Of a stretch of DNA of 64,000 nt, positions 3,467 through 34,248 are shown piece after piece. The stretch comes from a bacterium (GTDB lineage: Archaea; Nanobdellota; Nanobdellia; Pacearchaeales; GW2011-AR1): contig DAIQOR010000001.1 in assembly GCA_036787775.1 (NCBI GenBank), positions 30,521 through 94,520 of the forward strand. The letters run 5' to 3'. The stretch's first letter is position 1. Every line of letters begins with the position of its first letter. Under the pieces are notes generated by a model, which was given only the letters and a program-made list of their open reading frames with translations, ran no database searches and was not told the DNA's origin. Position numbers and translations under genes: made by a program.

Positions 3467-3661
3467 ATGAAAAAGAAAGCAAGTGAACTAACAAAAGGTG
3501 ATAAAATAAATTTAGCGAATAAGTCTTTTGTAATAAAAGAGTTCGAACTTTCTGAAATCGGAAAACACGGCAAGCGAAAATGTCGTATTGAAGCAGAATC
3601 CGAACAAGGCGAAAAGATAACAATTATCCGTCCGGAAGACTATCCAGTAGAGACCCTATGA
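3467..3661 (+). CDS. eIF-5A-like mini-protein (N-terminal SH3-like domain only; hypusine-loop-like GKHGK)
   Basis: 64 aa; TKGDKINL...SEIGKHGKRKCRIEAE closely parallels the aIF5A in this window (SKTGKHGHAKCRIEAM); stop TGA overlaps start of downstream GT2 (ATGA). Confidence 0.5.
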   Translation: MKKKASELTKGDKINLANKSFVIKEFELSEIGKHGKRKCRIEAESEQGEKITIIRPEDYPVETL

Positions 3662-4563
3662 TTAATATTATAATCACTTCCTACAACGAACCCAAAGCAA
3701 CCCTTCGGGCGGTAAAAACATTTTTAGACCAAAAAATTAAAGAAGATTTCAAAATAATTGTGGTAGACCCTTTCCAAGAAACAGAAGATTTTCTTAAAAA
3801 AAATATTAAAGATAAACGAGTAAACTTTTTTTTAGATCCGGGAGAGGGAAAAAGTTACGCACTAAATTTGTTATTCCAAGAAAATTTTTCTGAAAATAAA
3901 AACGATTTATTTATTCTAACTGATGGAGATGTTTACGTCTCAGAAAATTCCTTAAATGAAATAATAAAAGCATTCAAGGCTAAAGAAGTCGGATGTGTTG
4001 CAGGAAAACCCACAACTCTAGACTCAAAAAAAACAAAATATGGTTTCTGGTCTCACTTCGCGTTTGAAGGAATCCATCAAGCAAGAAAAAAATTATCCGA
4101 AAATAAAAAATTCTTTGAATGCTCGGGATATTTATTTGCCATAAGAAATTCAGTCCTATTTGACTTTCCTTTGGAATCTTCCGAAGATTCAATAATCCCT
4201 TATTTATTTTGGGAAAAAGGTTACAAAATAAAATATGTTCCAGAAGCAGAAGTTTATGTGAAAAATCCAGACAATTGGAAAGATTGGTTAAATCAAAAAG
4301 TAAGGAACATTAAAGGTCACGAAAATTTAAACAAAATCGCTCCCAACATGCCACGAACTAAATCTCTATTTAACGAAATAAAACATGGATGGAATTTTTT
4401 ATTTTTTTATCCAAAGAACATCCAAGAATTATTCTGGACAATTCAATTATACTTCGCAAGGTTATACCTTTATTTCAAAGCCTTCAAAGAATTAAGATTA
4501 AACAAAAAATATTCCGATGGTTGGAGAGAAACCGAAATAAATTCCACAAAACCTTTAGATTAA
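3658..4563 (+). CDS. Glycosyltransferase family 2 (GT-A)
   Basis: IIITSYNEP N-terminus, DxD-like TDGDVYV, 301 aa. Confidence 0.7.
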   Translation: MINIIITSYNEPKATLRAVKTFLDQKIKEDFKIIVVDPFQETEDFLKKNIKDKRVNFFLDPGEGKSYALNLLFQENFSENKNDLFILTDGDVYVSENSLNEIIKAFKAKEVGCVAGKPTTLDSKKTKYGFWSHFAFEGIHQARKKLSENKKFFECSGYLFAIRNSVLFDFPLESSEDSIIPYLFWEKGYKIKYVPEAEVYVKNPDNWKDWLNQKVRNIKGHENLNKIAPNMPRTKSLFNEIKHGWNFLFFYPKNIQELFWTIQLYFARLYLYFKAFKELRLNKKYSDGWRETEINSTKPLD

Positions 4564-4962
4564 TTTTTTTAGCGCTTTTTTTAACTCTTCAACTGACTCA
4601 AAAATTTTCATAGAACCAATTAAAATTGCGCTCAAATATTCAATTGCATTTTCAACCGGCTCGTCAGTTTTTATTCCAAAAGTAGGCACGCCTTTCGCAT
4701 AAGCATAACCAATCTCCCAAGCAGTTCCAGCACCAACATGAAGCCCGTCAAGATTTGCCAAAACGAAATCACAATTTTCAAAACCTTTAATTATATCTCC
4801 TTCGAAAATTTTTTTTACATCTTGAACCTCGCTATATAATCCAACATCTCTATGGGGCAAAAAAGTTTCAAAACCCAAAGATTCGCACAATTCAGCAAGA
4901 ACTTCCAATCGTTCTCTTTCTGTCTTGTTCGTCAATTTTCCCGCAATATACACTTTCTTCAT
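4555..4962 (-). CDS. Nucleoside 2-deoxyribosyltransferase-like protein (PF05014-like)
   Basis: MKKVYIAGKL... and DGLHVGAGTAWEIGYAYAKGVP motif typical of NDT-like Rossmann family; 135 aa. Confidence 0.55.
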   Translation of the reverse strand: MKKVYIAGKLTNKTERERLEVLAELCESLGFETFLPHRDVGLYSEVQDVKKIFEGDIIKGFENCDFVLANLDGLHVGAGTAWEIGYAYAKGVPTFGIKTDEPVENAIEYLSAILIGSMKIFESVEELKKALKKLI

Positions 4963-4995
4963 AAACCTTATATAACGAACCCCGTTTTAAAGTTT

Positions 4996-6357
4996 ATGAA
5001 GCTTGTAATAATTAAATTAGGCGCATTAGGAGATGTAGTCCGAACGCTCCCTTTAGCAAAAGCGCTAAAACAAAAATATCCCGAGGCAGAATTAACCTGG
5101 ATAACAAATCCAAATGCAATCACAATTTTGGAAAATAATCCCCATATAGATAAAATTTATTCTTCAAATGAAGAAATTTCAGAAACATTTGATAAATTAT
5201 ATAATTTTGATATTGATGATGAAGCAACAAATTTATCATCCAATATTGAATCAAAAGAAAAGTTCGGATTTTACAATTCAGACGGATTTGTTTCAGCTTT
5301 TAATTTAGGTGCAGAATATTACCTAAACACACTTTTTGATGATGAACTAAAAAAGGAAAATAAAAAAACTTATCAAGAGATGATGTTTATGGTTGCCGAA
5401 ATTCCTTATAATCAAGAACACGAGACAATTTATTTGACCAAGGAAGAAATAAAATATGGAAAAAAATTTATTCAAGAAAATAAACTTTTTGAAAAGAAAA
5501 TAATCGGAATAAATATTGGAGCTTCCTCAAGGTGGCCATCAAAAAAATTACATGAAGAAAATTTAAAAGAATTAATAAAAAAATTATCTAAACACGAAAA
5601 TCACATAATTCTTTTAGGAGGTCCAAACGAAGTTGAATATCTTGAAACAATTCATAAAGAATTTCAAGAGTTTCCAAATATAATCAAAAATAATCCTTCA
5701 AATTCTCTAAAAGAATTTACCTCAATAATCAATATCTGCGACGAATTAATTTGTGGAGATACTTTAGCACTACATCTTTCAATCGCGCTAAAAAAACCAA
5801 CAATTGGATTATTTTTCTGTACATCTCATTCCGAAGTTGAAGATTATAATCTACTTAAAAAAATAATTTCTCCAAAATTTGATGAATTTTTTCCAGAGAA
5901 GATGGATCAATATGATGAAGAGTTAGTAAAAAGTATTTCCTGCGAGATGATTTTAAATTCATTAAATAAACCTGTTAAAGTAGCAAATGCCATGATAAAA
6001 AATGGAGACAAATTTTTAGTAATCAAAAGAAAAGATGAAGAAATTCATGCAGGGAAATGGATGTTTCCTGGAGGAGTTTTAGAAGATAATGAAAATTTTG
6101 AAGAAGCATTAAAAAGAGAAATAAAAGAAGAAGTTGGTTTAGAAATAAATCAAATAATAAAAGAAATATCAAATTATAAATACCTTCGACCTGACGGAAA
6201 AATTACCCTTGGAAAAAGTTATTTAGTTAATACAGAAGATTTTAATGTTGAAACTAATGGAGAAGTCGAAGATTTTAAATGGGTGACTTTAGAAGAATTC
6301 GAAAAATTAGATTCAATAGAAGGTTTGGCGGAAGAATTATTAGATACTTTTGAATAA
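4996..6357 (+). CDS. GT9 (heptosyltransferase-like) glycosyltransferase fused to C-terminal Nudix hydrolase domain
   Basis: Start moved to internal ATG (MKLVIIKLGALGDVVRTLP = GT9 N-terminal signature); C-terminal Nudix box GGVLEDNENFEEALKREIKEEVGLE (GX5EX7REUXEEXGU). ORF-track start 4852 overlaps the convergent gene. Confidence 0.65.
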   Translation: MKLVIIKLGALGDVVRTLPLAKALKQKYPEAELTWITNPNAITILENNPHIDKIYSSNEEISETFDKLYNFDIDDEATNLSSNIESKEKFGFYNSDGFVSAFNLGAEYYLNTLFDDELKKENKKTYQEMMFMVAEIPYNQEHETIYLTKEEIKYGKKFIQENKLFEKKIIGINIGASSRWPSKKLHEENLKELIKKLSKHENHIILLGGPNEVEYLETIHKEFQEFPNIIKNNPSNSLKEFTSIINICDELICGDTLALHLSIALKKPTIGLFFCTSHSEVEDYNLLKKIISPKFDEFFPEKMDQYDEELVKSISCEMILNSLNKPVKVANAMIKNGDKFLVIKRKDEEIHAGKWMFPGGVLEDNENFEEALKREIKEEVGLEINQIIKEISNYKYLRPDGKITLGKSYLVNTEDFNVETNGEVEDFKWVTLEEFEKLDSIEGLAEELLDTFE

Positions 6358-6391
6358 AAACAAATAAAAACGCTTTTTGGCTAAATTTATT

Positions 6392-7924
6392 ATGGACGAA
6401 ACTCAGAAAGAATTAGAAAATAGAAAAAAGAAAATTCTAAACAAAATTATTCCCTTCATGAAGGAACCACTAAATCTTGCTTTAGTTACAGTTTTATTAT
6501 TCGCATTTGTCTTAAGATTATATTATTTCATAAAAGTAGGAAACCAGCCTCTTTGGTGGGATGAACTTTGTTATGGAAGTTTAGCAAAAAATTTTATAAC
6601 ACACACGTGGGATAGCACAACCTTAATCTTAGGAGAAACGGCAATAAGGCCAGTCCTTTTTCCCTTACTTTGGTCAATTCTTTTAAGAGTCGGAATTCCA
6701 GAAGGAGGAGTAAGATTTTTTTTAGAGTTTATTCCTTCAATTCTTTCTGTATTTTTTGTTTATCTAATTGGCAAAGAAACATTTAATAAAAGGGTAGGGA
6801 TTATATCCGCATTTATTTTTTCAGTTTTATGGATACACTTATTTTATACAGTTAGATTATTAACACATGCCCCCGCACTAGTATTTTTATTTTCCAGCAT
6901 ATATTTGTTTATGAAAGCTACGGAAACAAAATTTAATTTCAATCTTTTCACCATATCATTAATCCTTCTTTCTCTCAGCACATTAATGAGATATCCAAAG
7001 GGAATAATTTTCTTTGTGTATTTATTTATGTTGGTAATAGATAAAAAATTACTATTAAAAAATTTCAAATTTTGGAAAGCGGGCATTTTAGGAATCTCTC
7101 CAATGATCGTGTTTTTTATTTATAATTTTGTAAAATACCAAAATATATTTCCTGCCCTTTTAGGAGGAGGATATCTGGATAAAGGGGGATCCCCCCTTAT
7201 TAAACCGATTGCGTTTAATCTTTTAAATTTTATTCCAGTTTATCTTAAAACAACTTTCTTTATATTTTTCTTAATTGGTTTATTGTTAATTTTATTTGAA
7301 TTAATCACAGGATACAATTTAATACCAAAGATAAAAAAACTGAAAAATAGTCTAATTTTAATTTTAATTTTAATTTTAATTTATTCATTTTTCATATTTT
7401 ATATGCGAGCTGCTGAAGATAGATGGTTATTTCCAACAATTTTACCATTAGCAATTATAACTTCTTTAGGAATTGATTTTGTCTATAATCAAATAAAAAA
7501 ATATAACAAACAAATAGCAGTCTTATGCGTGATTCTTATTTTAGGATTTGGAGCTTATTCGCAATTAACTTTTGCAGATTCGCTGATAAAAGGAAAGCAA
7601 GAAAGTTACCTTCAGATGAGACAGGCATTCGAATGGATAGGTTCTAACACCCCTGAAGATTCAATCATAGCCGGTTTAGGGATAGAACCTTATACTGTTT
7701 ACTATGCAAAAAGAGATTATATCAATCTCCCCCAGAATTATTCGGAAGTTGGAGTGGCTTTGGAGGCAGATTATCTTGTAGCACATCTTTTTGCGGGAAA
7801 TCCTCCAAAATATTTAAGTGAATATCTTTCTGAAAATCAAGATATTTGGCAGCCCTTAAATGCCTGGTTTTTAGATGAAGCAAAAACTCAACCAGCAGTT
7901 ATTTTATATAAAAAGGTTCAATAG
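6392..7924 (+). CDS. GT-C fold membrane glycosyltransferase (ArnT/PMT-like, GT39/GT83-like)
   Basis: About 12 predicted TM helices, first-loop WWDE acidic motif; ORF track starts at TTG 6377, first ATG at 6392. Confidence 0.55.
   Translation: MDETQKELENRKKKILNKIIPFMKEPLNLALVTVLLFAFVLRLYYFIKVGNQPLWWDELCYGSLAKNFITHTWDSTTLILGETAIRPVLFPLLWSILLRVGIPEGGVRFFLEFIPSILSVFFVYLIGKETFNKRVGIISAFIFSVLWIHLFYTVRLLTHAPALVFLFSSIYLFMKATETKFNFNLFTISLILLSLSTLMRYPKGIIFFVYLFMLVIDKKLLLKNFKFWKAGILGISPMIVFFIYNFVKYQNIFPALLGGGYLDKGGSPLIKPIAFNLLNFIPVYLKTTFFIFFLIGLLLILFELITGYNLIPKIKKLKNSLILILILILIYSFFIFYMRAAEDRWLFPTILPLAIITSLGIDFVYNQIKKYNKQIAVLCVILILGFGAYSQLTFADSLIKGKQESYLQMRQAFEWIGSNTPEDSIIAGLGIEPYTVYYAKRDYINLPQNYSEVGVALEADYLVAHLFAGNPPKYLSEYLSENQDIWQPLNAWFLDEAKTQPAVILYKKVQ
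7354..7383 (+). repeat. Tandem hexanucleotide (aatttt)x4-5 inside GT-C gene, encoding (LI)n
   Basis: aattttaattttaattttaattttaattta read directly; in-frame. Confidence 0.8.
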
Positions 7925-11189: not shown

Positions 11190-12581
11190 TTAAACAAAAT
11201 CTATTGTCAAAGCCATTCTTATATCTTCAAAGAACGTTTTTTCTTTAAAACTTTTTTTAAGTCTTTTTAAAATAAAATTAGGATTAAGATAAACTTTTCG
11301 GTAAAATTTTCTAAAATATTTTTCAATTAAAGGCCAAGATAAATTTTCATGATTATAAATTGATGAAGGCGTTGAATAAAATTTAAATTTTTCCCAGTCA
11401 TGCGTTTTAATCAAATTTTTTTTATCCAATTCATTAAACATTTCTGTGGCAGGTAAAGGAATTGTAATACTTATTTTTGCCAGATCCAAATTAAGTTCTT
11501 TTGCAAAATCAATTGTTTGTTGCATTGTTTCTTTAGTTTCTCCCGGAAGTCCAATCATAAAAAATCCCGCAACTTCCAGTTTTGCCTTTTTAGCCAATTT
11601 TACTGAATTTCTAACTTGCTCTAAAGTTATACCTTTTTTAATATTATTCAAAATTTGTTGGTTTCCAGATTCAATTCCAAAATAAACTCGATAACATCCA
11701 GCTCTTTTCATTTTGTCTAATAATTCGAAGTCAACTCTATCCACTCTTATTCCTGTGATTGTACTCCATGCAAGCTTATTCTTTTTTTCAATCAGCAAAT
11801 CACAAATTTTTTTAGCCCGAGTCATATCTGTGGTAAATCCATCATCTGTGAGATGAACTTCTTTAAAACCCATTTTTTCTATCTTGCTAAACTCTTGTGC
11901 CACTCTTTCAGGAGATTTTACTCTAAACGTTCGTCCAAAACAACTTTTATTACAATAGATGCATCCATAAACACAACCTCTGGAAGTTTCAAGCCAGGCC
12001 ACAGGGTTATTTTTTGCAATTGCCGACGGGACTTTATACTTTTGAATTTCATAGAGGAAATGAGCTGGAAAAGGTAATTCATCTAAATCTTTAATAAAAT
12101 CCGCCCGTTTATTTATTTTGATCTCATTCTTGACCCTATATCCAACCCCTTTAATAAAATTTAATTTTTTCCCTTCAACAAGTTCTTGAATCACAAAATC
12201 TCCTTCCCCAATCACAACGATATCTAAAATTGTTTCCTCTAAAACTTTTTCTGGAAAAGAAGAACAATGGGGCCCCCCGCCAACAAGAATTATTTTTTCA
12301 TTAAAATTTTTAACAATCTTTGCAACCCGATTAGCTTCATTAATTAAAGGTGTAACAAAACTAATTCCCACATAATCTGGATTAAATTCTTCTAATAATT
12401 TTGAAAATTTTTTTTCATCATAAAGATTAAAATCAAAAATTTTCACTTGATGTTTTTTTTCAGTTAAACTTCCAGCAATACAGGCAAGACCTAAAGGAGG
12501 TGTGGAAGGAGCAATCCCTTTCAAACTGGTCTTTTCATAAATTTTTTCAAAAGGAAGATTAACTAAAATTATTTTTTTCAT
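11190..12581 (-). CDS. Cobalamin(B12)-binding domain radical SAM protein
   Basis: N-terminal B12-binding-like domain; CxxxCxxC = GCVYGCIYCNKS; 463 aa; paralogous in architecture to 1185..2726. Confidence 0.7.
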   Translation of the reverse strand: MKKIILVNLPFEKIYEKTSLKGIAPSTPPLGLACIAGSLTEKKHQVKIFDFNLYDEKKFSKLLEEFNPDYVGISFVTPLINEANRVAKIVKNFNEKIILVGGGPHCSSFPEKVLEETILDIVVIGEGDFVIQELVEGKKLNFIKGVGYRVKNEIKINKRADFIKDLDELPFPAHFLYEIQKYKVPSAIAKNNPVAWLETSRGCVYGCIYCNKSCFGRTFRVKSPERVAQEFSKIEKMGFKEVHLTDDGFTTDMTRAKKICDLLIEKKNKLAWSTITGIRVDRVDFELLDKMKRAGCYRVYFGIESGNQQILNNIKKGITLEQVRNSVKLAKKAKLEVAGFFMIGLPGETKETMQQTIDFAKELNLDLAKISITIPLPATEMFNELDKKNLIKTHDWEKFKFYSTPSSIYNHENLSWPLIEKYFRKFYRKVYLNPNFILKRLKKSFKEKTFFEDIRMALTIDFV

Positions 12582-13291
12582 TTTTTAATAAAACCGAGCC
12601 GGTGTTTGAAAATTAACCACAACATTCCTAATCCTATTACAAATGTTTTTTTGAAATCTCCCGTAGCTGAAGAAACTCCGACTCTTCTAAGATATCTAAC
12701 AGGAATTTCAATAAATTTAATATTATTTCGGATAACTTGCAACATCATATCTGGATTAAATTCCATCCCAGTAATTGTAAATTTATTTTTAATTTTCTCA
12801 TAAGCTTTCCGATTAATTAATCTATAAGTGCATCCAACATCTGAAAGAAAATTAGTTCCAAACATAAATTCAACCATTTTTGCAACAGCAAAATTTCCCC
12901 ACTTCAAAAACCACCCCATGTTTGCGCCACGACCAATCATAATCGAAGTTGTCCGAGTTCCAAAAACCACGTCAAAATTATCTGAATAAGCCAAAAATTT
13001 CACCACATCATTTGGGTCAAAAGTTCCATCTGGTTCGGACATAATTATCAAATCTCCAGAAGATTCGTACAACGCTCTACGATACCCCCAACCGAACCCT
13101 TGTTTTTTTTCCAAAAAATATTTCGCATTCGTTTTCAAAATCTCTTCTTTCGTGCCTTCACGAGCGTTGTTATCCACAGCAATCACTTCGTCAACATAAC
13201 CTGTTTTAAACAACCCATCAATAAATTCCCTTATGGAATCTTTTTCATTATACGTCGAAAAAACAACCGAAACCTTTTTTCCTTTCCACAT
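12578..13291 (-). CDS. GT2 polyprenyl-phosphate glycosyltransferase (Dpm1/AglD/AglJ-like)
   Basis: VSVVFSTYNEKDSI, VIAVDNNAREGT, 237 aa soluble GT-A typical of dolichol-phosphate sugar synthases. Confidence 0.65.
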   Translation of the reverse strand: MWKGKKVSVVFSTYNEKDSIREFIDGLFKTGYVDEVIAVDNNAREGTKEEILKTNAKYFLEKKQGFGWGYRRALYESSGDLIIMSEPDGTFDPNDVVKFLAYSDNFDVVFGTRTTSIMIGRGANMGWFLKWGNFAVAKMVEFMFGTNFLSDVGCTYRLINRKAYEKIKNKFTITGMEFNPDMMLQVIRNNIKFIEIPVRYLRRVGVSSATGDFKKTFVIGLGMLWLIFKHRLGFIKK

Positions 13292-13313
13292 AAATTATCA
13301 GAACTTTTTAGTT

Positions 13314-14999
13314 TTAAATAGTTAATTGTTCAAGGTTATAGATATAAAATTCCCCAATTTTCACCTCTGGTTCAAATCCCTCAACAGGATAATATTTTAC
13401 AACATATTTAGATTTTTCTAAAGCTTCCTCTTTTGGAATTGGTTCAACTATTCCAGAATAAATTCCGTTTGGCCAAAAAAATGAATCATTCATTTCAGAG
13501 TTTTCAAAACTTTTTTTAAAATATTCAAATAGATATTTTGAAGAAAAATTTAATAAAGGTTTATCATGATCATTAATATAAAATTTTCCCCCAAAATAAT
13601 ATCCAATTGCTTTGGGGCAAATAACAACATCCTCTTCTTGAGTGTGTTCTTGAAGATAAATTCCAACTTCTTTTATATGTGATTCATACATCACATTTTT
13701 TGTAATGAAATAACCAGAATAACTTAAACTCAATAAAACTAAAATTAAAATTAAAGTAGTCCTTCTTTTTCGTTTATCAATAAATAAAACTCCCATAAAA
13801 GGGATTGAAGCAAAAATATTCATTAAAAAATCTGGAAAATTTGTGGCTTTTATTAATCCTGCACTATTGTAAATTGTTGGTTGGGGATTTAATATTAATA
13901 ATAAAATAATTGAGATTAGAAAACAAATAATTACTATCACAATTTCTTTTTTATCCATGTTTATTTTTTTCAAATTTGAATAAATAAACATCCCAATTAA
14001 AATGAATATTGCAGGCAAAATTGTTGCAAAATAACGAGGATATCCAAAAGCTGGACGAGGAACAAGAAAAAAGAAAATTAAAATAACTAAAGAATAAATT
14101 AATAAAATATTAACGAGGTTACTTTTTCTTTTCAAAAAATAAAAGAAGCTCCAACACATCAAAATTACTACCGGAAAGGTCAAAAGCCGAATAAACTGGG
14201 CAATATTCAAAAAGAAACTTCCAAGATAAATTCCAAGGGTTGAAAATTGAGAACCACCAATATTCGCATTATGAATTAAAAATGAAAAGAAATTTCCAGG
14301 CTCAATAAAAATACTATAAATTCCCCAAATAATCACAAACGAAAAAAAAGAAATAAGCCCAATTTTAAAATAATCATAAAAATCCTTCTTAAACTCCTTA
14401 TTAAAAAAATAATATATTCCAATTCCCACATAAATTAAAAAAGCCATTGGATATCTATTTCCAATACTAAAAAGTAAGAAAAAATAAGATAAATAAAAAT
14501 GAAATTTTTTGTGTTCCTGATGATATCTGAGAATTGAGTAAATAAATCCGAAGGTAAAAAACATAGAAAGAATATCGATATCAATAATCACCGAGGAGGA
14601 AAAAACATAATAATTAATCATAAAAAAAGCACAAGAGATTAATCCAATCCACTTTCCTTTTTCTTCACCAATTATTTTATAACAAAATAAATAAATTAAA
14701 AAGGCAGTTAAAATAACAAAAATAAAATTTAGACTTCGAAGGATAATTTCACTCTCGCCAAATCTCATAAGTAAGGATAAAGTCATAATGTAAGTCGGAG
14801 GATGCCACAAAGCAAGTTCTAAAGGCTGTTGTTCTGAATGATAAAACAAAGGATGGCCTGTTTCTATTAATGCAATTGCCGGATTAACAAAATCTGCTTC
14901 CTCCCCCGTAATCTCATTATTTAGAGAAACCACTCGAAAACCAATGCCCAGTAAAATTAAAACTAAACAAAAAATAATTAACAACTTTTTAATATTCAT
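13314..14999 (-). CDS. GT-C fold membrane glycosyltransferase (ArnT/PMT-like) with C-terminal extracytoplasmic domain
   Basis: Many TM helices then about 130-aa soluble tail; 561 aa; adjacent to Dpm1-like GT2 (donor/consumer pairing). Confidence 0.5.
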   Translation of the reverse strand: MNIKKLLIIFCLVLILLGIGFRVVSLNNEITGEEADFVNPAIALIETGHPLFYHSEQQPLELALWHPPTYIMTLSLLMRFGESEIILRSLNFIFVILTAFLIYLFCYKIIGEEKGKWIGLISCAFFMINYYVFSSSVIIDIDILSMFFTFGFIYSILRYHQEHKKFHFYLSYFFLLFSIGNRYPMAFLIYVGIGIYYFFNKEFKKDFYDYFKIGLISFFSFVIIWGIYSIFIEPGNFFSFLIHNANIGGSQFSTLGIYLGSFFLNIAQFIRLLTFPVVILMCWSFFYFLKRKSNLVNILLIYSLVILIFFFLVPRPAFGYPRYFATILPAIFILIGMFIYSNLKKINMDKKEIVIVIICFLISIILLLILNPQPTIYNSAGLIKATNFPDFLMNIFASIPFMGVLFIDKRKRRTTLILILVLLSLSYSGYFITKNVMYESHIKEVGIYLQEHTQEEDVVICPKAIGYYFGGKFYINDHDKPLLNFSSKYLFEYFKKSFENSEMNDSFFWPNGIYSGIVEPIPKEEALEKSKYVVKYYPVEGFEPEVKIGEFYIYNLEQLTI

Positions 15000-15526
15000 T
15001 TTAAAATTTCAATTTCAAACAAAGCTTCTGAACAAGGAAGAATCCAACAAAAAAATCGCTCATAGATTTCCGGATTTAAATTTATTAAAGGATTCATAAA
15101 AATGTTTAAAAATGGAAATGCTAATCTCGTAAAATTTAATTTTTTACTTATTTCTTTAATAAATATTAATTCCTTTGGCTTTTCATAATTTTTGTTGAAT
15201 TTTTGATAATAATCAAAAGTAAAGTATGAAAAGAAAGTTTTGTGAGTAGCGTCTCGATAAGTCACGCCACAACTAAAATGGGGGACACGAATTATCCACT
15301 TAGCATTATCTTTAGAAATTCTCTTCATTTCAAGCAATGTTCTTTCAAAGTCATTTACATGTTCTAAAAAATGCGACGTATAAATCTCATCAAATTCATT
15401 TGCTTTAAATGGCCACGGAAATTTATTTGTATCAAAAACAACATCAACTCCTTTTTGGTCAACGAAATCCAAATTTACATAGCCTTCTTTTATATCTTCC
15501 CCACAGCCCAAATTAAGTTTTTTCAT
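14996..15526 (-). CDS. Class I SAM-dependent methyltransferase (Methyltransf_11-like)
   Basis: LNLGCGEDIKEGYVNLD motif I, 176 aa. Confidence 0.65.
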   Translation of the reverse strand: MKKLNLGCGEDIKEGYVNLDFVDQKGVDVVFDTNKFPWPFKANEFDEIYTSHFLEHVNDFERTLLEMKRISKDNAKWIIRVPHFSCGVTYRDATHKTFFSYFTFDYYQKFNKNYEKPKELIFIKEISKKLNFTRLAFPFLNIFMNPLINLNPEIYERFFCWILPCSEALFEIEILK

Positions 15527-16311
15527 TTTTTATTTACCAATTTATCGCCAATTATTAAAATGAATTTTACAGGTTTTAAAAGTTCTGCGAAAGGAGAATA
15601 TATTAGTCTCAATCTCACTGCCCCCAAAAGCATCTGAAGAGGAGTTCTTGAAGAAAGAATCTTGGACCCTTTATCATCATCCTCCCATTTTGTCGGAATC
15701 TCTTTAATTTTAAATTTATTATTTTTGCAAACAAAAAGCAAATTTATGTCAAACGCCCATTCGGTCAAAACTAATAACGGATGAATTTTTTCTATAACTT
15801 CTCTTTTGAACATTTTTGCCCCACATTGAGTATCCTTTTGTTTAACCAGCCCCATGCTCCGAACAGCAAAATTAAACACCCTGCTCCGAACATACTTTCC
15901 TGTAGAACGAATAACTTCCGAGCCATTTATCCATCTCGAGGCAATAGTCCCGTCGACCCCTTCAATGTGAATTATTAAGTCATAAAAAGCTTCTGGAGCG
16001 GTCGACATATCCGTGTCGACAAACCCAATTAAATCATTATCTCGCTTCAGAGCGTCCTTAAAACCCTCTGTAATTGCAAATCCCTTACCTCCTTGCTCAA
16101 ATTCTAAAAATCTTATCTCTTTGTACGTCTTTTTATATTCTCTAACAACATCCAAGGTCTTATCTGTGCAAGCATTCAAAACAACGAGAATCTCAAAATC
16201 AGTAATTTCTTTAATTTTCTTCTTCTCTTGAAAAAATTCAGAATAAGCTTCCAAAGTTCTACCTATCCGAAACTCTTCGTTATATGCTGGCATAATAATA
16301 CTAATTTTCAT
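15523..16311 (-). CDS. GT2 polyprenyl-phosphate glycosyltransferase (Dpm1-like)
   Basis: ISIIMPAYNEE, VVLNACTDKT, FVDTDMST DxD-like; 262 aa. Confidence 0.65.
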   Translation of the reverse strand: MKISIIMPAYNEEFRIGRTLEAYSEFFQEKKKIKEITDFEILVVLNACTDKTLDVVREYKKTYKEIRFLEFEQGGKGFAITEGFKDALKRDNDLIGFVDTDMSTAPEAFYDLIIHIEGVDGTIASRWINGSEVIRSTGKYVRSRVFNFAVRSMGLVKQKDTQCGAKMFKREVIEKIHPLLVLTEWAFDINLLFVCKNNKFKIKEIPTKWEDDDKGSKILSSRTPLQMLLGAVRLRLIYSPFAELLKPVKFILIIGDKLVNKK

Positions 16312-16315
16312 CCAA

Positions 16316-17542
16316 TTACCTTAATTTCACGAACAAGAAACTGAATATAAACATTATGGTATTAGAGAACATAAAAGCCAAAGTGTATTCTAACACGTTA
16401 CTATGGAAGAAAGAAAGAAGAACAATCTCAATCACCAAGAATATCACAAGGAATTTGCTATATCTCAAATTGTTTGTTGATAGCCCATAGACAAGAACGA
16501 GGTTACTCAAAGATAAAAGACTAAATGCAATTCCAGAATAAACCAGATAAGGTGCCATTTCAAGGTATTGGGCTCCATACAAAATTTTAATTATTAATTC
16601 CGGCAAAAGATAATAAAATAGGGCTACAATAAAACAAACGAAAGAGATAATTAAAAAAGATTTCTTAAAAATATTTAATGAATTTTTATTGTCGTCACTT
16701 TTTTCAGAAGTTAAAGGGAACATTACCTTATTTATTGCCGCAGTTCCGAAAAAGATTATTTTTCCTAACATCGATAAAACTGCATATTGACCAGCAATCT
16801 CTGGAGAAAAAAATCTTTTTGCCAAAAGAATATCTAAACTAAAAATTAAAAGTATGACGGCCATTGTGACAAAATAAGGAACGCTCTGAAAGTAAATTCC
16901 CTTAAATTCTGTCGCTTTTTCGTCTTTATGTAAAACATCTTTATTTGAATAAATAGCAAATATTAAACTTGCCAAAGTTCCCAAAACGGCCCCAATCATC
17001 GCCCCAAAAACTTTGAATCCAAATAGCACGAAAGAAATAGCAAAAAATAATTTTAAAGTGGATTCAATTATCATGTTTCCTCCCAACGCCCCAAATTTTT
17101 TACGTCCCTGCAAAACACCTCTTGCGACGGGATTAGAAAATGTTACGAAAATTAAAAGGTTGGTAACAAAAATTAACCAAAAACTTATTCTTAAATAAAT
17201 TGAAAGAGGTATTGCAATAAGTGCAAGGATTAAAAAAAGAATTCCTGAGATAGAAACGGATTTTTTCAAAGATTTTTTCAATAAATATTTTATTTCGCCA
17301 ATTTTATTTTTAGCATTTAGATTAGAAGTCAATTTGGTGATAAGATTTTGAATCGCTTCAGCAGGAATAGTATAAATATAAACGAGAGACATTAGCACGG
17401 CAAGCACACCATAACATTCAGGCCCCAACATTCGCCCCATTGCAAAATGAAACAAAAAATTCAAAACATTGTAAATGTTCATAGTAATTAATAATACAAT
17501 AGTCCCTTTTCCTAATTCTCCAAAAAAAGATTTCCCAGTCAT
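16316..17542 (-). CDS. Oligosaccharide flippase (MOP superfamily; Wzx/AglR-like polysaccharide biosynthesis protein)
   Basis: 408 aa, about 12 TM, position immediately upstream of GlcNAc-1-P transferase and aglB. Confidence 0.55.
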   Translation of the reverse strand: MTGKSFFGELGKGTIVLLITMNIYNVLNFLFHFAMGRMLGPECYGVLAVLMSLVYIYTIPAEAIQNLITKLTSNLNAKNKIGEIKYLLKKSLKKSVSISGILFLILALIAIPLSIYLRISFWLIFVTNLLIFVTFSNPVARGVLQGRKKFGALGGNMIIESTLKLFFAISFVLFGFKVFGAMIGAVLGTLASLIFAIYSNKDVLHKDEKATEFKGIYFQSVPYFVTMAVILLIFSLDILLAKRFFSPEIAGQYAVLSMLGKIIFFGTAAINKVMFPLTSEKSDDNKNSLNIFKKSFLIISFVCFIVALFYYLLPELIIKILYGAQYLEMAPYLVYSGIAFSLLSLSNLVLVYGLSTNNLRYSKFLVIFLVIEIVLLSFFHSNVLEYTLAFMFSNTIMFIFSFLFVKLR

Positions 17543-17543
17543 T

Positions 17544-18548
17544 TTAACCAGCGTAAATTCCCCCGAAAAGCATTAATCCGACGAGAATAATAATTATTTG
17601 GAACAAATTAACTATATAAACAACTTCTTTTTCATAAACTTTTCCACTCTTTTTAATTTTCTTCAAAACATAAATTGCAATATGTTCTAATCCATAAAAC
17701 TTTTCGTAAGGAACATCCAAAGTTCCGTCTTCTTGAACTTTCCCAAAACTCTGTTTCCTAAGTTTACCTCTTAATTTTAAACCAGTCTCAAGAATATACG
17801 GAATAAAAAAGAACACTGCTATTTTTTCCACATTTCCTAAAATAGCCATGCAAGCAATCAAAGCACCGACGGAATATGTCAAAACATCTCCAGGGAAAAT
17901 TTTTGCAGGGTATTTGTTAAAAACATAAAAAGCCAACAAACAAAAAATCATCACAAGCCCAATTAATGCCAACCAACTATTTCCAGCAATATAATTAACA
18001 AAAGATAGAGCCCCCAATAAAATTATTCCTTGACTTGTTTCAATTCCATTATAGCCTGCAATAAAATTAAATGTTGAAGATGCTCCAACAACTCCAAGAG
18101 GAATTAAAATCAAAGGATACCATAAACCAAACTCGATTCCTATCATACTCGATTCCCCCGCATTTATTACCATCAAGGGTATTGCTGCGAAAATCAAAAG
18201 TAAAATTCTAAATCTTGCTGAAAGCCCACCCTTAACCCATCCAAAAATGTCGTCGACAAATCCAATAAATCCCGCAAGAAAAACAGTCATAAGCAAAGCA
18301 AATATTTGAGTCGTATAAATATCTGTTTTCAAAATAAATGTTTTCAAAGCAATGTAAAGTAATACTCCAAATAAAAATCCAAATAAAACAATTATTCCTC
18401 CAGAACCAGAAACATTTTTCGGATGCCCTTTTTTATTCATATCTTCCCAAATTAATCCAATGTTTTTTGCCTTCTTAATCCACAAAGGTGTAAAAAATAA
18501 AGTAACAAGAAAACTAAATATCAATGAGATTATAAGTAATGATTCCAT
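17544..18548 (-). CDS. UDP-GlcNAc:dolichyl-phosphate GlcNAc-1-phosphate transferase (MraY/WecA/AglH family)
   Basis: Polytopic; conserved FIGFVDDIFG aspartate motif of MraY/WecA family; start set to ATG at 18546-18548 directly abutting aglB stop. Confidence 0.7.
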   Translation of the reverse strand: MESLLIISLIFSFLVTLFFTPLWIKKAKNIGLIWEDMNKKGHPKNVSGSGGIIVLFGFLFGVLLYIALKTFILKTDIYTTQIFALLMTVFLAGFIGFVDDIFGWVKGGLSARFRILLLIFAAIPLMVINAGESSMIGIEFGLWYPLILIPLGVVGASSTFNFIAGYNGIETSQGIILLGALSFVNYIAGNSWLALIGLVMIFCLLAFYVFNKYPAKIFPGDVLTYSVGALIACMAILGNVEKIAVFFFIPYILETGLKLRGKLRKQSFGKVQEDGTLDVPYEKFYGLEHIAIYVLKKIKKSGKVYEKEVVYIVNLFQIIIILVGLMLFGGIYAG

Positions 18549-18549
18549 T

Positions 18550-21306
18550 TTAGAATTTCCAAGGAACATATTTAGATGAGTCTCTATCAAGATATTTCTC
18601 TTTTGTTTTTTCATCCACGGAAAATCCTTCAGGATATTCAATTTCCCAAATTTTTATTGGGCCCCTAATTCCTTGGTAATAAACAAATTCTGGAAGATTC
18701 ATTCCTTGGCTCCTCAAACTAGAAATAATTAAATCTGATTCAACATGAGCAATTTTAAAATTTGGAAAATTATTGAAAGGGTCATTCAAAATATATTTCT
18801 GAACAAGCATACCCCTCATTAATCTTGGGCTTAAGAAAAGAGCCATTCCAATAGGATTTGTTTGCACATTTTGCCCATTAGAACTTATTGAAGGAAAAAT
18901 AAAAATTGTTGCATTTATGCCGGACTTGAAATCATAAAAACCATCATTTGTTGAAACATACCTAACATTCACTTTGTGTTGAACTCCGTTATAAACCATT
19001 ATGACATATGGTTGAAGAGCAGATAACTTTCCATTTTCGTCTTTTTTAGAAGGAACAATTGCTGCTCCGATGCCAGTATTTCCTGAAGGAAGAAAAATTT
19101 CCTTTCCATTTTCTTCAATAATTAAATCTTCATCCAAAGCAATTCCTCCAGAATACACATAAGTAGTTTCTTCTTTTGTTTCATAAGTTTGTTTTTCATC
19201 CAATCCCATTACTCCTATCCAAGAAACTCTATCAAAATCCTCATCAGAACCGATGCTAGAAAAAGCCCCATATTTTCCAATATCTGAAGAGTCAATTAAA
19301 AAATAATTTGCATCATGAGTATACAAAAATTCCAAAGCATCTTTTTGATTGTCTCCTGTCAGAACTAATCTACCCATCCAATAATTCCAGAAAGAAATAG
19401 CATTCCCTCCATCCAAAACTGTTGCCCTTTTACCAATACTTTGCACCCAATATCCATAATCCCACCAGTGCCCAAAAACAGATTCTTGAGGCGTCTCAGT
19501 TCTAACCCAATCCATCGCCTTTTGCCATTGCTGAGTATAACCCGAAGGAATCATATTATATGATTGAGCCTTTATTTGTCCGTAATATGTCCAGAAAATA
19601 AAAATACTCAATAAAATAATTGTAATTGCAAGGATTCCCAAAATTAATCTCTTTGTCTCATTCTTTTCCTTGAAAAAACTTTCCACACTTTCATAATTCA
19701 AATAAGCCAAAAAAATCGGAGCAATAGGTCCCAAAACCATAATCAATCGAACTGCACCTCTTGCACTAAAAATAGAAATTAATAAAACAACAAGTAAAAA
19801 AATATACTCAAATCTTATTTTTTTCAATAATTTTTTATCTTCTTTATTATATCTCAAATAAATCTTTGTTGCCAAATAGAAAAATAATAAAACTGCTCCA
19901 TAATAAACAAATTTACTTATAAAATTCTCTCCATTAAAAATACTTGAACCAGAATATCTTGAGAAAATCATTCCCAACAACACCAACGCAAAAGAACCAG
20001 TTAAAATCCAAGCATCTTTTTTCTTAAGTCTTTTCAACATTTTTTTAAATAGAGCAATTGAACCAATAACAAATGCCCAGAACATTAAAGCGATTCCTCC
20101 AACATGCGGACCAAAACTTGCTTCCCATTCTATAAAGTAAGGTTGCCTATTTTCTGCAACAGTTGTGTTCCATCTTCCAGTAACTGGTTTAAATATTTGC
20201 TGATGGATTGCCTTTGCTTTATCCATAACAAAAGAAGTGTCTACAAAGACTGTTGCAAAAATAATCACTAAAAGAATGGTGAAAATTAAAGAGATAATTT
20301 GTTTTGGAAGTTTTATCTTTTTTAATGTTTCATTTTTTGAAATTTTTGTATTCCATATTAAAAAGTGAATTACCATTATGATTAAAACCAGGAATGCAAT
20401 TCCCATATCAAGCGAAGTTATCATATTTTTTAATTTCATATATGGTTGAATGATAAGAGTTAGAATTGTTGAAATAAGAATCCATATAATATAGACTGTG
20501 TATTGATTTAAGTCAACCTTATTCAAGATGAATGCAATTAAGACGGATATCGCTAAAGGAATATAAATAAACATTACTCCTCCCCAAATCGCTCCCATAA
20601 GGGATGTTGAAATTCCAGTCAACACCCCAAAAAGAACCGCGAATTTAATCTTTTCACTTTTCCATGCTTTTAAAAATAAATAAAATGTTAAGAACATAAA
20701 GAAAAATGCCGCAGATTCTTTTTCAGGAATTCCAGCAATTGTTCGAGATAAAAATACGGGAGTAACAATCATAAAAAAAGTCGAGATTAAAGCAATAATA
20801 TTCGCCTTAGTTTTGCTCTTAGGACTTTTTCTAACAAAAACTTCTCTAACAAAAAGGAAGAAAGAAATTATTGTCAAAGCAAACATAATCACAGGAAACA
20901 ATGCAGCAGAAAATTCAATATTATTTGCAGAATAAAAAAGATTTGTAATTGAGTAAGTCCAAACAATCATTTTTGGGAGAAGCATGGTTTCTTTTGCTGT
21001 TTCAAAACCAAGAGGGGTATTTCTCATCATGTCTATTTTAGCTACAGAACCATTGTCAATAATTTCCCCTGCATATCGTGTAAATAACCATGGATCTAAA
21101 TCTGGTCCGAGTGTCCAATTATTTGTTGTAAAATCCCACAAACCGGGAAATCCGCCGTGATCCTGCATGGGCAAAGTACGAATATAAATTCCCAAAACTA
21201 AAGCAACAATCAACAATCCAATAACCCAAACTTGCTTCTTCTTTAGAAAATCTAAAACCTTCGCTTTTCTTTTTTCCAAATCCTCGAATGTATTTTCTGT
21301 TTCCAT
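18550..21306 (-). CDS. aglB: Archaeal oligosaccharyltransferase AglB (STT3)
   Basis: 918 aa, N-terminal multi-TM domain, diagnostic WWDYGYW motif (HWWDYGYWVQ), C-terminal periplasmic domain. Confidence 0.9.
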   Translation of the reverse strand: METENTFEDLEKRKAKVLDFLKKKQVWVIGLLIVALVLGIYIRTLPMQDHGGFPGLWDFTTNNWTLGPDLDPWLFTRYAGEIIDNGSVAKIDMMRNTPLGFETAKETMLLPKMIVWTYSITNLFYSANNIEFSAALFPVIMFALTIISFFLFVREVFVRKSPKSKTKANIIALISTFFMIVTPVFLSRTIAGIPEKESAAFFFMFLTFYLFLKAWKSEKIKFAVLFGVLTGISTSLMGAIWGGVMFIYIPLAISVLIAFILNKVDLNQYTVYIIWILISTILTLIIQPYMKLKNMITSLDMGIAFLVLIIMVIHFLIWNTKISKNETLKKIKLPKQIISLIFTILLVIIFATVFVDTSFVMDKAKAIHQQIFKPVTGRWNTTVAENRQPYFIEWEASFGPHVGGIALMFWAFVIGSIALFKKMLKRLKKKDAWILTGSFALVLLGMIFSRYSGSSIFNGENFISKFVYYGAVLLFFYLATKIYLRYNKEDKKLLKKIRFEYIFLLVVLLISIFSARGAVRLIMVLGPIAPIFLAYLNYESVESFFKEKNETKRLILGILAITIILLSIFIFWTYYGQIKAQSYNMIPSGYTQQWQKAMDWVRTETPQESVFGHWWDYGYWVQSIGKRATVLDGGNAISFWNYWMGRLVLTGDNQKDALEFLYTHDANYFLIDSSDIGKYGAFSSIGSDEDFDRVSWIGVMGLDEKQTYETKEETTYVYSGGIALDEDLIIEENGKEIFLPSGNTGIGAAIVPSKKDENGKLSALQPYVIMVYNGVQHKVNVRYVSTNDGFYDFKSGINATIFIFPSISSNGQNVQTNPIGMALFLSPRLMRGMLVQKYILNDPFNNFPNFKIAHVESDLIISSLRSQGMNLPEFVYYQGIRGPIKIWEIEYPEGFSVDEKTKEKYLDRDSSKYVPWKF

Positions 21307-26290: not shown

Positions 26291-27721
26291 TTATATTTCA
26301 ACTGCATTCCTATCCACTTTTTTCCTTACAACACCATTTTCATCTTTACAAACTTCGCAACCATGAGAAGTATATTTATGAAGTAATGGACAATTGCCTG
26401 GTCCAGAAACGTCCTTTATTGCAAAAGTTTCTTGATGATAACAACAAGAAAATCCTTTTTCACATTCATTAATTGAAAGATAATCATAAGCTTCTTCAAT
26501 AGGTTCTCCAAGAGCAATATAATCGCCCCTTAACAATTTTCTATAGTAGTATCTTACATTCGGTAAGAAAGTTGAATCTCCTGTAAGAACCAATTTATTT
26601 CCTTCTGGAGTATTAACTTCTATGCTCCCCCCAGTTTCTCCAGATTTTTTTTTCTGAGTAAAAAGAGAATTATACTTTGGTTTTGCTCCAAGCACCCCAA
26701 TCCCAAATATTTGCAGTCCTGCATTTGCGGGATCATTCGGATTTTCATAATAAGCATAAATATTAGAAGTCATTCCATCACTAAACGCTCCTCCATTCTC
26801 AATCCTTAATTCAGCTCTAATTTCTTGCCCATCCACATTTCGAGCATCCACATTAACATATTCAGTTACCCCTCCTTTCAAAGGTCTGAATGAAAAATAT
26901 TTCTGATTAGGAATTCTCAAACTATTTTGAAATTCAACTAAAGGGCATTCCAAATCTTCTACTTCGCATCCACTAACAACTGATAAATCTCCTAATGAAA
27001 CATATGTCCCTTCATGTTTTTTTCCATCAAAAAATAAATTAACTCTTTCATTAAAACTTGTAACATCTATTCCCTGTTGAATTTTTTCATATTTTCCTTC
27101 AAAATTTACAACTTCTCGAGGAGCAATATAAACTTGCCCAGATGAGTCAACTCGCACATTCCCATTAATTGGTTCCGCACATTTTTCACAAGTAATTAAC
27201 TGATTAAATAATTCCCCTCCTGCTTGAGGAATGTTTGCAAGTTCCAACGCAACTTCATTTATTGATTGTCCTTTTTCCACAATTACTTGAACTGAAGGTT
27301 TCTTATCTTTTTCATAAACTAATCTCGCACCTTTTGGAACAAAAACTTTTTCTCCCTCAATTACACAAATAGAAGTTTTAGAAGAGACATAATTTGCTTT
27401 AACCACATTAAAACTTTCATCTAATATAAAATTGTTCTCTTCAACACTTATTCCCTCAAAGTTATTTCCAGAAATATCTGAAATTCCATCCGTATTAGCA
27501 AATTCTCCAACTACTGATATCTGGTAATTTCCCCCTTGCTCTGCAATTTTTTCTCCTTCAAAAACATTAATCGTTTCTATATTATTTATCACTCCCGGTT
27601 CAATCCTGATTTTCTCAAGAGAGAATGTTTCGGCCATAACTAAATTGCAAGTCAAGGACAAAAAAAACATTCCAATAATTAGACAAATAATTTTTCTTTT
27701 CATTTTCCGACAAAAATCCAT
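26291..27721 (-). CDS. Secreted hypothetical protein with C-terminal Cys-rich module
   Basis: N-terminal signal/TM (IICLIIGMFFLSLTCNLVMA), 476 aa, C-terminal CEKGFSCCYHQ...GNCPLLHKYTSHGCEVC. Confidence 0.4.
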   Translation of the reverse strand: MDFCRKMKRKIICLIIGMFFLSLTCNLVMAETFSLEKIRIEPGVINNIETINVFEGEKIAEQGGNYQISVVGEFANTDGISDISGNNFEGISVEENNFILDESFNVVKANYVSSKTSICVIEGEKVFVPKGARLVYEKDKKPSVQVIVEKGQSINEVALELANIPQAGGELFNQLITCEKCAEPINGNVRVDSSGQVYIAPREVVNFEGKYEKIQQGIDVTSFNERVNLFFDGKKHEGTYVSLGDLSVVSGCEVEDLECPLVEFQNSLRIPNQKYFSFRPLKGGVTEYVNVDARNVDGQEIRAELRIENGGAFSDGMTSNIYAYYENPNDPANAGLQIFGIGVLGAKPKYNSLFTQKKKSGETGGSIEVNTPEGNKLVLTGDSTFLPNVRYYYRKLLRGDYIALGEPIEEAYDYLSINECEKGFSCCYHQETFAIKDVSGPGNCPLLHKYTSHGCEVCKDENGVVRKKVDRNAVEI

Positions 27722-28413
27722 TTAAATTCTGATTTGGAATCTTCTAAAACAAAAACAATTTCTTCATCATCCTCAAAATTTTCCATATTAAAATCATTTT
27801 CTTCTAATAATTCATTCGAACAAGTCAAGCAATGTCCATACTCATTTGTTGTATCAATCGAAACAATGTTTTCGATAACTTCATACATTTTTCCCATCTT
27901 AATATCAACTTCTGAAGAATATGCTTCTTTTAAATTTGAGGAGGATTCACTACCAATTTTTTTAACGTTTAAATCATAATTTAATTCAGTGGAAACTTTC
28001 AAGTTTTCTATTTCAACATTCACCGAGGGTTGTCGTGAGCTAATTTCTAAATTTTCAAAATTTTCAAAATCTCCGATACAAAGAGAAAAACTTTCCAAAA
28101 TATAATTCGAGATCTCTCCTCCCAAATCTATTTTTGAAGGCAAAAGATTCTGATCTCCAGAATAATAATATGGGAGGCCTTCAGAATTTAAATTTTGTGT
28201 GGAAGGATTTTTTTGCTCACCAAATTCATACATTCCAATTAAACTCGCTTCATCAAAGCAATCTTGAACAAATTCTCTAACACCCTCGACATCTGGTGTA
28301 TAAATTCTATCTTCATTAGATGATTCCCCTCGCAACAAAAAATATCCTCCAACAGCCCCAACTATCACAACAGCAATTATAATAAAAATTGTAACCTGTC
28401 CACTCTTTTTCAT
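27700..28413 (-). CDS. Membrane-anchored hypothetical protein (N-terminal TM, acidic ectodomain)
   Basis: MKKSGQVTIFIIIAVVIVGAVGGYFLL anchor; 22-nt overlap with downstream gene suggests co-transcription. Confidence 0.4.
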   Translation of the reverse strand: MKKSGQVTIFIIIAVVIVGAVGGYFLLRGESSNEDRIYTPDVEGVREFVQDCFDEASLIGMYEFGEQKNPSTQNLNSEGLPYYYSGDQNLLPSKIDLGGEISNYILESFSLCIGDFENFENLEISSRQPSVNVEIENLKVSTELNYDLNVKKIGSESSSNLKEAYSSEVDIKMGKMYEVIENIVSIDTTNEYGHCLTCSNELLEENDFNMENFEDDEEIVFVLEDSKSEFKWIFVGK

Positions 28414-28443
28414 AAATTAAATTAGAATTCACACTATATAAAA

Positions 28444-32352: not shown

Positions 32353-32375
32353 TTTATTTTTCTCCGTTTTCCATT

Positions 32376-34247: not shown

Positions 34248-34248
34248 T

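Follow-up and report, generated by a model that had tools for sequence, protein, structure and literature searches.

What is a pyrophosphohydrolase doing at the end of a glycosyltransferase, and are the two really one protein? The question is raised by a gene in a 64,000-nt stretch of archaeal DNA (GTDB Pacearchaeales GW2011-AR1; assembly GCA_036787775.1, contig DAIQOR010000001.1, forward-strand positions 30,521-94,520), called the window below, whose product joins a domain of glycosyltransferase family 9 (GT9) to a Nudix hydrolase domain. Taken together, the architecture of the protein and the heptose-pathway context of its relatives make it very probable that this is a genuine bifunctional protein of a DPANN surface-glycan pathway. 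The full statement, a heptosyltransferase whose Nudix half cleaves the nucleoside diphosphate (NDP)-heptose donor, is tentative, and we give it a probability of roughly 0.4. Labels beginning with P or L (P0052, L007 and so on) denote homologous proteins and loci from relatives that were compared with the window. The gene and its parts are the following.

4996..6357, + strand: complete GT9-Nudix gene, 453 aa plus stop; homologues of 453-470 aa have the same start.
4852..4995, + strand: spurious 5' extension of the open frame, outside the gene; overlaps 4555-4962 (-) and has no counterpart in homologues.
4996..5961, + strand: GT9 glycosyltransferase domain of GT-B type, residues 1-322 (PF01075, AlphaFold2 model, Foldseek, family profile).
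5032..5034, + strand: codon of Asp13, invariant, aligned with Asp13 of E. coli WaaC.
5542..5544, + strand: codon of Lys183, invariant, aligned with WaaC Lys192.
5758..5760, + strand: codon of Asp255 in the motif GDTLALH, invariant, aligned with the Asp of VDTGLSH in WaaC.
5962..6354, + strand: Nudix hydrolase domain, residues 323-453 (PF00293, PF14815, AlphaFold2 secondary structure, Foldseek).
6073..6141, + strand: Nudix box GVLEDNENFEEALKREIKEEVGL, residues 360-382 (G360, E366, R374, E375, E378, E379, G381, L382), an exact GX5EX7REUXEEXGU.
4968..4975, no strand assigned: TATA-like palindrome TTATATAA, centred ~24 nt 5' of the ATG within the 33-bp divergent intergenic region.

The original prediction had placed a GT9 and a Nudix domain in one protein, and a Pfam domain search bears this out. 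PF01075 (Glyco_transf_9) matches residues 128-292 (E 1.6e-18, 67.3 bits against a cutoff of 22) and PF00293 (NUDIX) matches residues 329-440 (E 5.5e-19, 69 bits against 21.1), with the MutT-type profile PF14815 (NUDIX_4) matched as well (42 bits, cutoff 35). The AlphaFold2 model of the full protein, built on a 30-sequence alignment, reached a mean predicted local distance difference test score of 91.3 and a predicted template-modelling (TM) score of 0.72. In this model the linker is minimal, ~3 residues, between the last GT9 helix (316-323) and the first Nudix strand (327-336). Conservation between homologues is alike in the Nudix and GT9 halves (identity pairs of, for example, 53/57%, 50/52% and 56/56%), and both are therefore under purifying selection.

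The open reading frame (ORF) list gives the frame as 4852..6357 (+), and an internal ATG at 4996 opens the 453-aa product beginning MKLVIIKLGALGDVV. We place the start at 4996, not 4852, because the equivalent MK(I/L) forms the first residues in all 30 aligned homologues, because NCBI annotates the GT9-Nudix protein with 453 aa, and because 4852-4962 overlaps the divergent gene 4555-4962 (-); the longer start had rightly been suspected of being an artefact. The two halves form one continuous chain, as had been predicted: no stop or frameshift separates them in window positions 4996-6357, and the identical 453-aa protein is found on 15 contigs from several independent sources. The window protein (P0001) is a 100% match to MBS3076212.1, which NCBI lists as 'NUDIX domain-containing protein [Candidatus Pacearchaeota archaeon]'. 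Read by the usual geometry of archaeal promoters, the spacing of the palindrome TTATATAA suggests that the transcript may be leaderless or nearly so.

The N-terminal half has the GT-B fold, with two Rossmann-like lobes like those of solved GT9 enzymes, according to the model and to Foldseek. Searching its 322 residues against the PDB returned the Veillonella protein 3tov (E 1.2e-16), WaaF (1psw, 7.9e-15) and WaaC (6dfe/2h1h, ~1e-13 to 1e-12), and the profile of GT9-only orthologues matches the same three. Of the WaaC residues that have invariant counterparts here, we take Asp13 to be the proposed catalytic base and Lys192 to be the binder of the donor phosphate. The equivalogs for the heptosyltransferases HepI, HepII and HepIII of lipopolysaccharide (LPS) were all missed (TIGR02193, 72.9 against 185.3 bits; TIGR02195, 48.1 against 134.6; TIGR02201, 63.5 against 170.2).

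The C-terminal half contains the textbook Nudix box that had been claimed for it, exact over residues 360-382. Positions G360, E366, R374, E375, E378 and E379 do not vary among 30 fused homologues, nor among 25 fused, split or stand-alone members of the clade. R345, W355, F357 and a C-terminal Glu are invariant in the clade as well, and a count for the whole clade gives six invariant positions besides the box. Foldseek with the ~130 C-terminal residues supported the alpha/beta/alpha Nudix fold, retrieving NudI (6dt3), NudG (2rrk/3gwy), BdRppH (3ees) and the MutT-like 4dyw at target TM-scores of 0.68-0.85; geranyl diphosphate phosphohydrolase and NUDX1 are also among the PDB matches. No equivalog cutoff was reached for the MutT 8-oxo-dGTP diphosphatases (TIGR00586, 48.1 against 97.9 bits; NF008044, 54.9 against 148), for NudE (NF008736, 20.8 against 169), for NadM-Nudix (NF003787, 24.8 against 449) or for NudI (NF012016, 41 against 95), which is nonetheless the best solved relative. 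By its sequence, this half classifies as a MutT-clade Nudix hydrolase of minimal size whose catalytic box is intact. Nudix proteins that stand alone and share 43-44% identity with the fused domain occur in a Woesearchaeote (L012:1425-1835; L012/L013) and in Nealsonbacteria of the Candidate Phyla Radiation (CPR; P0141 among these proteins), so that the Nudix clade is not exclusive to the GT9 gene and its neighbours. The context of the Woesearchaeote protein is unrelated, with an RlaP-like gene and a giant surface protein adjoining.

A reading as anti-phage defence was considered and rejected as uninformative. The PADLOC model PDC-S07 (PDLC04899), a phage defence candidate, scores the Nudix half at 80.2 bits and E. 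coli MutT at 130.7 bits; the model thus fails to separate defence proteins from ordinary MutT-like Nudix hydrolases. As an observation on the model itself, PDC-S07 fits E. coli MutT better than every Nudix protein examined, and its matches are no evidence of a defence function. No other defence genes were found near the GT9-Nudix gene.

The same fusion was sought in other archaeal and DPANN genomes, taking as closest relatives the 120 nearest protein clusters at 90% identity. Fifty-two of the 120 are fused (440-499 aa, one of 645 aa), all of them longer than 430 aa and with both domains and an intact box; the other 68 consist of GT9 alone (~330 aa), at the same 54-61% identity across the GT9 part. 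All members named to organism are DPANN archaea. The family is narrow, since clustering of 1.84 billion proteins at 50% left only two full-length fused representatives. In a rough neighbour-joining tree of the GT9 domain, which is too star-like for counting fusion and fission events, fused and unfused forms are interleaved. The GT9 clade itself is widespread in Pacearchaeota, Woesearchaeota and Nanoarchaeota, and carries other C-terminal fusions, to a heptose-1-phosphate adenylyltransferase-like domain (P0148), a GmhB-like haloacid dehalogenase (HAD; P0271), a family 2 glycosyltransferase (GT2; P0166, P0186) and a class-I methyltransferase (P0205). From these sequences the clade seems prone to fusing with whatever operon partner lies downstream. 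The fusion had been called unusual, which needs some qualification: it turns up repeatedly in DPANN archaea, and this clade is joined in several other ways to whichever gene comes next in its operon.

In a scan of GTDB species representatives, mapped by tblastn and checked at the ORF level, the loci fall into three classes. In-frame fusions are found in the window, L001, L005-8 and L014-17, and separate adjacent GT9 and Nudix genes at L009, L010/11, L023, L046, L054, L055 and L074, where the split, translationally coupled Nudix gene has its own ATG and an RBS-like (ribosome-binding-site-like) GGAG and is spaced -22 to +31 nt from GT9. About 25 other DPANN loci have the same gene cassette without Nudix. 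Whether fused or coupled, the Nudix follows GT9 directly, down to 40% GT9 identity, and bacterial GT9 relatives at 30-40% identity (Omnitrophota, Elusimicrobiota and others) have neither Nudix nor cassette. We read this Rosetta-stone pattern of fused, adjacent and absent partners as functional coupling of GT9 and Nudix, with the Nudix as the predicted accessory.

The nature of the shared pathway is indicated by genes that accompany GT9 in relatives. Directly downstream of the fusion in L007 lie an HldE-like kinase/adenylyltransferase (NF008454, 426 bits), a GSU2086-family protein and a GmhB-like phosphatase (170.9 bits, cutoff 178); the corresponding genes in L005 are a HAD-IIB phosphatase, rfaE_dom_I (242 bits) and rfaE_dom_II (169.6 bits, cutoff 181.5). 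L010, L055 and L074 have an insert made of a PfkB-cupin fusion, a GmhB-like gene and an adenylyltransferase, and L079, from a divergent Woesearchaeote, has HepK, GmhB, HepAT and GT9 contiguously. In P0052 (645 aa), GT9, a heptose-1-phosphate adenylyltransferase domain (rfaE_dom_II, 176.1 bits) and Nudix form a single chain. The Nudix follows GT9 and precedes the heptose genes, and the P0052 chain has it after the inserted adenylyltransferase. Heptose genes are adjacent in 7 of 11 Nudix-bearing loci and in 3 of 22 others (Fisher p=0.006, uncorrected for relatedness). A GRSTT motif, reported as a hallmark of heptose nucleotidyltransferases that are promiscuous for nucleoside triphosphates (NTPs; PMC11573728), is missing from the local adenylyltransferases of the relatives, and ADP-heptose is therefore favoured as donor. 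The predicted link of this GT9 to a heptose-nucleotide pathway is robust.

The original prediction had connected the fusion with an ADP- or NDP-sugar donor. That connection is strengthened by the adjacent HldE/GmhB-like genes, by the triple fusion P0052 and by the coupled split genes; it is weakened by the kind of Nudix involved, which is MutT/NudI/NudG-like and not an ADP-sugar pyrophosphatase. The proofreading or recycling that had been suggested stays hypothetical, and the suggestion took into account neither the lack of heptose-activation genes in the window nor the many orthologous GT9 genes, a majority, that have no Nudix. The idea that the Nudix substitutes for the GmhB phosphatase is rejected, both being present in L007, L010, L055 and L074.

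A separate observation concerns an isomerase of the pathway. No GmhA isomerase of the sugar isomerase (SIS) type occurs in the archaeal heptose gene sets examined. In its place stands a GSU2086-family protein (NF052581, 320 bits) or a deoxyhypusine-synthase/ArgZ-like Rossmann protein (321 aa), and some loci have a PfkB kinase fused to a cupin with weak mannose-6-phosphate-isomerase similarity. These three kinds of protein are, on sequence, candidates for an alternative sedoheptulose-7-phosphate isomerase.

L007:12852-13868: GmhA-replacement candidate (profile and sequence similarity).
L010:3286-4602: GmhA-replacement candidate (profile and sequence similarity).
L010:5687-6652: GmhA-replacement candidate (profile and sequence similarity).

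The cassette around the gene has a conserved order: QueC (-), a 64-aa IF5A-like ORF, GT2, a nucleoside 2-deoxyribosyltransferase (NDT)-like gene (-), GT9 with or without Nudix, an optional insert and a PMT_2-type GT-C. In the window, the GT9-Nudix gene lies at the edge of a glycosylation island of ~21 kb. The features that matter here are listed below.

3467-3661, + strand: 64-aa ORF with weak IF5A N-terminal similarity, overlapping the GT2 start (3658); >30 loci, 44-67% identity.
3658..4563, + strand: GT2, 301 aa, conserved upstream cassette member (PF00535, synteny).
4555..4962, - strand: NDT-like protein, 135 aa, divergent neighbour (PF05014, E 1.4e-16; PDB 7m5h, E 3e-8).
6377..7924, + strand: PMT_2-type GT-C membrane glycosyltransferase, 515 aa, next gene (PF13231; synteny).
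17547-18641, - strand: GPT, a PF00953 polyprenyl-phosphate sugar-1-phosphate transferase.
18553-21306, - strand: STT3/AglB-like oligosaccharyltransferase, 918 aa.
1185-2726, + strand: B12-binding radical S-adenosylmethionine (SAM) enzyme.
11190-12581, - strand: second B12-binding radical-SAM enzyme.

In relatives, the PMT_2 gene is conserved as the next gene, or as the next after inserted heptose genes, and in the window it is probably in one operon with GT9-Nudix. Behind it come a short-chain dehydrogenase/reductase (SDR), a family 4 glycosyltransferase (GT4) and a second SDR; NCBIfam equivalogs gave no specific function for these two SDR epimerase/dehydratases. The 64-aa ORF is counted as a real small gene because it is kept in position in >30 loci. 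In nearly all the DPANN loci examined, whether they have a Nudix or not, the NDT-like gene adjoins this GT9, and the NDT-like product keeps the motif GTAWEIG with the catalytic Glu of the family. A functional tie to the QueC and NDT-like neighbours was nevertheless down-weighted: they are on the opposite strand, they are present with or without Nudix, and they are gone from the more remote GT9 loci L079 and L088, where the heptose genes are retained. The minus-strand part of the island (11190-21306, including 16319-17542) also encodes a Wzx-like flippase, an AglJ-like GT2, a second PMT_2 GT-C, a small methyltransferase and an HpnJ-like B12-radical-SAM enzyme. Relatives have three to four B12-radical-SAM genes around the same cassette, and such genes suggest C-methylation or other radical chemistry on a glycan or lipid. 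Further along the window, 26291-39970 (-) is a long run of short, tightly packed ORFs that coincides with strongly negative GC skew; it looks like a large conserved operon.

How might the two halves work together? The GT9 half would transfer heptose from NDP-heptose, presumably ADP-heptose, to the lipid-linked or protein-linked glycan of the AglB/STT3 island. The Nudix half would be dedicated to this pathway as an accessory pyrophosphohydrolase that splits the NDP-heptose donor, or mis-made or surplus NDP-heptose, into nucleoside monophosphate (NMP) and heptose-1-phosphate, and, acting right at the transferase, it could throttle or clean the donor pool. NDP-heptose is favoured as the substrate because it is the sole nucleoside-diphosphate-X compound intrinsic to the chemistry of the operon, because the Nudix is placed between GT9 and the activation genes, because it is an accessory, and because cluster-encoded Nudix enzymes offer precedents for GDP-mannose and ADP-glucose. 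Nudix cleavage of nucleotide sugars has been reviewed (PMC7729866), and heptose is known in a Thermoplasma N-glycan (PMC11407970). As an assignment of the Nudix substrate alone, NDP-heptose is a tentative preference.

Several observations weigh against this explanation. In sequence as in fold, the Nudix half is nearest to the NTP pyrophosphohydrolases NudI (7.8e-17), MutT and NudG, the ADP-sugar enzymes being much weaker (NudE at 20.8 bits against a cutoff of 169; the ADPRase 1q33 at 8e-7), and every NCBIfam equivalog cutoff was missed, by the GT9 half and the Nudix half alike. Some three quarters of the orthologous GT9 genes have no Nudix, so that transfer must be able to proceed without it. 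For the identity of the sugar we depend on HldE/GmhB similarity in other genomes; we infer it, because most of the heptose-gene scores fall just below the curated cutoffs. In the 64-kb window itself, tblastn with HldE-like, GmhB-like, GSU2086-family and HAD-IIB queries found no heptose-activation genes; the donor pathway must be elsewhere in the genome or absent. Moreover, hydrolysis of a donor beside the enzyme that consumes it risks a futile cycle, which only selectivity or regulation would avert.

Several of these points would suit a rival account, in which the Nudix is a housekeeping MutT/NudI-like sanitiser of (d)NTPs, chemically unlinked to the transferase and captured by an accident of operon order by a GT9 that fuses readily with what lies downstream. 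NudI, MutT and NudG as best relatives, the GT2 and methyltransferase fusions of the same clade, the 44%-identical stand-alone protein in its unrelated Woesearchaeote context and the many GT9 loci without Nudix all speak for it. Against it, the Nudix keeps its position after GT9, fused or coupled, to 40% GT9 identity, and lies between GT9 and the heptose genes or, in P0052, behind an inserted adenylyltransferase; it is also enriched at heptose-gene loci, and the other fusion partners are all pathway enzymes. We consider this account unlikely, while regarding it as the most serious of the rivals. Still less credit goes to an assembly or annotation artefact by frameshift, or to a decaying or purely regulatory Nudix remnant. 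Split versions in other lineages might hint at such an origin, yet the catalytic box residues are all invariant, and a frameshift or assembly error is rejected outright by the identical protein on 15 contigs, the 52 clusters fused in frame and the split forms with their own ATG; the chance that any of this applies is close to nil.

Other substrates than the donor have also to be weighed. The Nudix could remove the product of transfer, hydrolysing released NDP (ADP) to NMP and inorganic phosphate and so relieving product inhibition locally. GT-B transferases often suffer inhibition from the NDP that they release, nucleoside diphosphates are among the substrates of some MutT-clade enzymes, and the very short linker would keep the two active domains together; set against this, cytosolic ADP is abundant and recycled by central metabolism, leaving little local gain, and most GT9 orthologues work without a Nudix, which renders the proposal improbable. 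Lower still we place a different diphosphate, either a polyprenyl-diphosphate-linked intermediate or an NTP or NDP that feeds the NDT-like N-glycosidase. The island GPT and STT3 imply lipid-diphosphate intermediates, the NudI and NUDX1 relatives are reported to be prenyl-diphosphate hydrolases (NUDX1 and geranyl diphosphate phosphohydrolase being among the PDB matches given above), and the NDT-like gene is an invariant divergent neighbour; but nothing ties the Nudix specifically to lipids, and the NDT-like gene is indifferent to the presence of the Nudix and lost at L079 and L088, where the heptose genes stay. A last alternative departs from glycans altogether, with GT9 serving a nucleotide-derived small-molecule route to an archaeal heptosyl-nucleobase metabolite. 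There, a MutT/NudI-like Nudix would turn NTP or NDP into NMP, the NDT-like N-glycosidase would free the base, or the nearby QueC would supply a 7-deazapurine base, and GT9 would heptosylate base or nucleotide with ADP-heptose, in analogy to the bacterial heptose-adenine antibiotics; we regard this as very improbable.

If the heptosyltransferase with its donor-cleaving Nudix is the correct explanation, what follows from it? Both domains are already listed by automated annotations, and GT9-Nudix is an uncharacterised combination of two well-known enzyme kinds: literature searches found no characterised fusion of this sort, in agreement with the original prediction, and a full-text search turned up no publication that treats a GT9-Nudix fusion or the heptosyltransferases of DPANN archaea. 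We know of no Nudix hydrolase described as dedicated to heptose-nucleotide metabolism, which is what the Rosetta-stone pairing predicts. NDP-heptose biosynthetic enzymes have recently been shown in archaea, where the reason for making heptose 'remains elusive' (PMC11573728); the cassette nominates GT9 as a concrete candidate for the heptose consumer in DPANN archaea, and the proposal is testable by enzymology and glycoproteomics. Should the Nudix edit or throttle the donor at the transferase, Leloir glycosyltransferases would be subject to a form of control that is new. It could then also provide a useful tool for degrading ADP-heptose, an innate-immune agonist. That it is the first cis-acting donor-editing module on such an enzyme is less likely than not, though likelier than the heptosyl-nucleobase route. 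A merely MutT-like sanitiser, on the other hand, would be an annotation curiosity only.

Compared with known systems, the GT9 half is closest to WaaC (HepI) and WaaF (HepII) of CAZy GT9 and to the uncharacterised V. parvula GT9 3tov, with which it shares the GT-B fold, PF01075 and the N-terminal K-x-G-x-x-GD. The alignment of Asp13, Lys183 and Asp255 with Asp13, Lys192 and the VDTG Asp of WaaC extends this likeness, as do the HldE/GmhB-like ADP-heptose genes beside GT9 in relatives of the window gene. Identity to solved GT9 enzymes is only 14-17%, however, and the archaeal host has neither LPS nor a 3-deoxy-D-manno-octulosonate (Kdo)-lipid A acceptor; instead, the window protein has a C-terminal Nudix and an AglB/STT3 island.

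The Nudix half shares with E. coli NudI, MutT and NudG the minimal ~130-aa fold, the canonical box and the preceding GxWxFPGG, and differs from them in being coupled, covalently or translationally, to a glycosyltransferase. A precedent for joining a Nudix to another enzyme of the same metabolic area is NadM-Nudix, an NMN adenylyltransferase/ADP-ribose pyrophosphatase (2qjt, 2r5w) that pairs a PF01467-type nucleotidyltransferase with a Nudix. It resembles the adenylyltransferase-Nudix part of P0052, whose domain is RfaE-domain-II-like (176 bits) and not NadM, whereas the window protein has no nucleotidyltransferase domain and scores 19-25 bits on the NadM-Nudix equivalogs. In function, the nearest analogy is with Gmm/WcaH (NudD, of the colanic-acid cluster) and AspP/NudF, where a Nudix that belongs to a polysaccharide pathway, or acts on one, destroys the nucleotide-sugar donor of that pathway and limits its flux. 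The window Nudix is not a sequence member of either group: the box of Gmm is modified and its cut falls at C1 of the sugar, and the ADP-sugar pyrophosphatases possess additional N-terminal elements for dimerisation. In both groups the Nudix stands without a fused transferase, whereas here the hydrolase and the glycosyltransferase are parts of the same chain.

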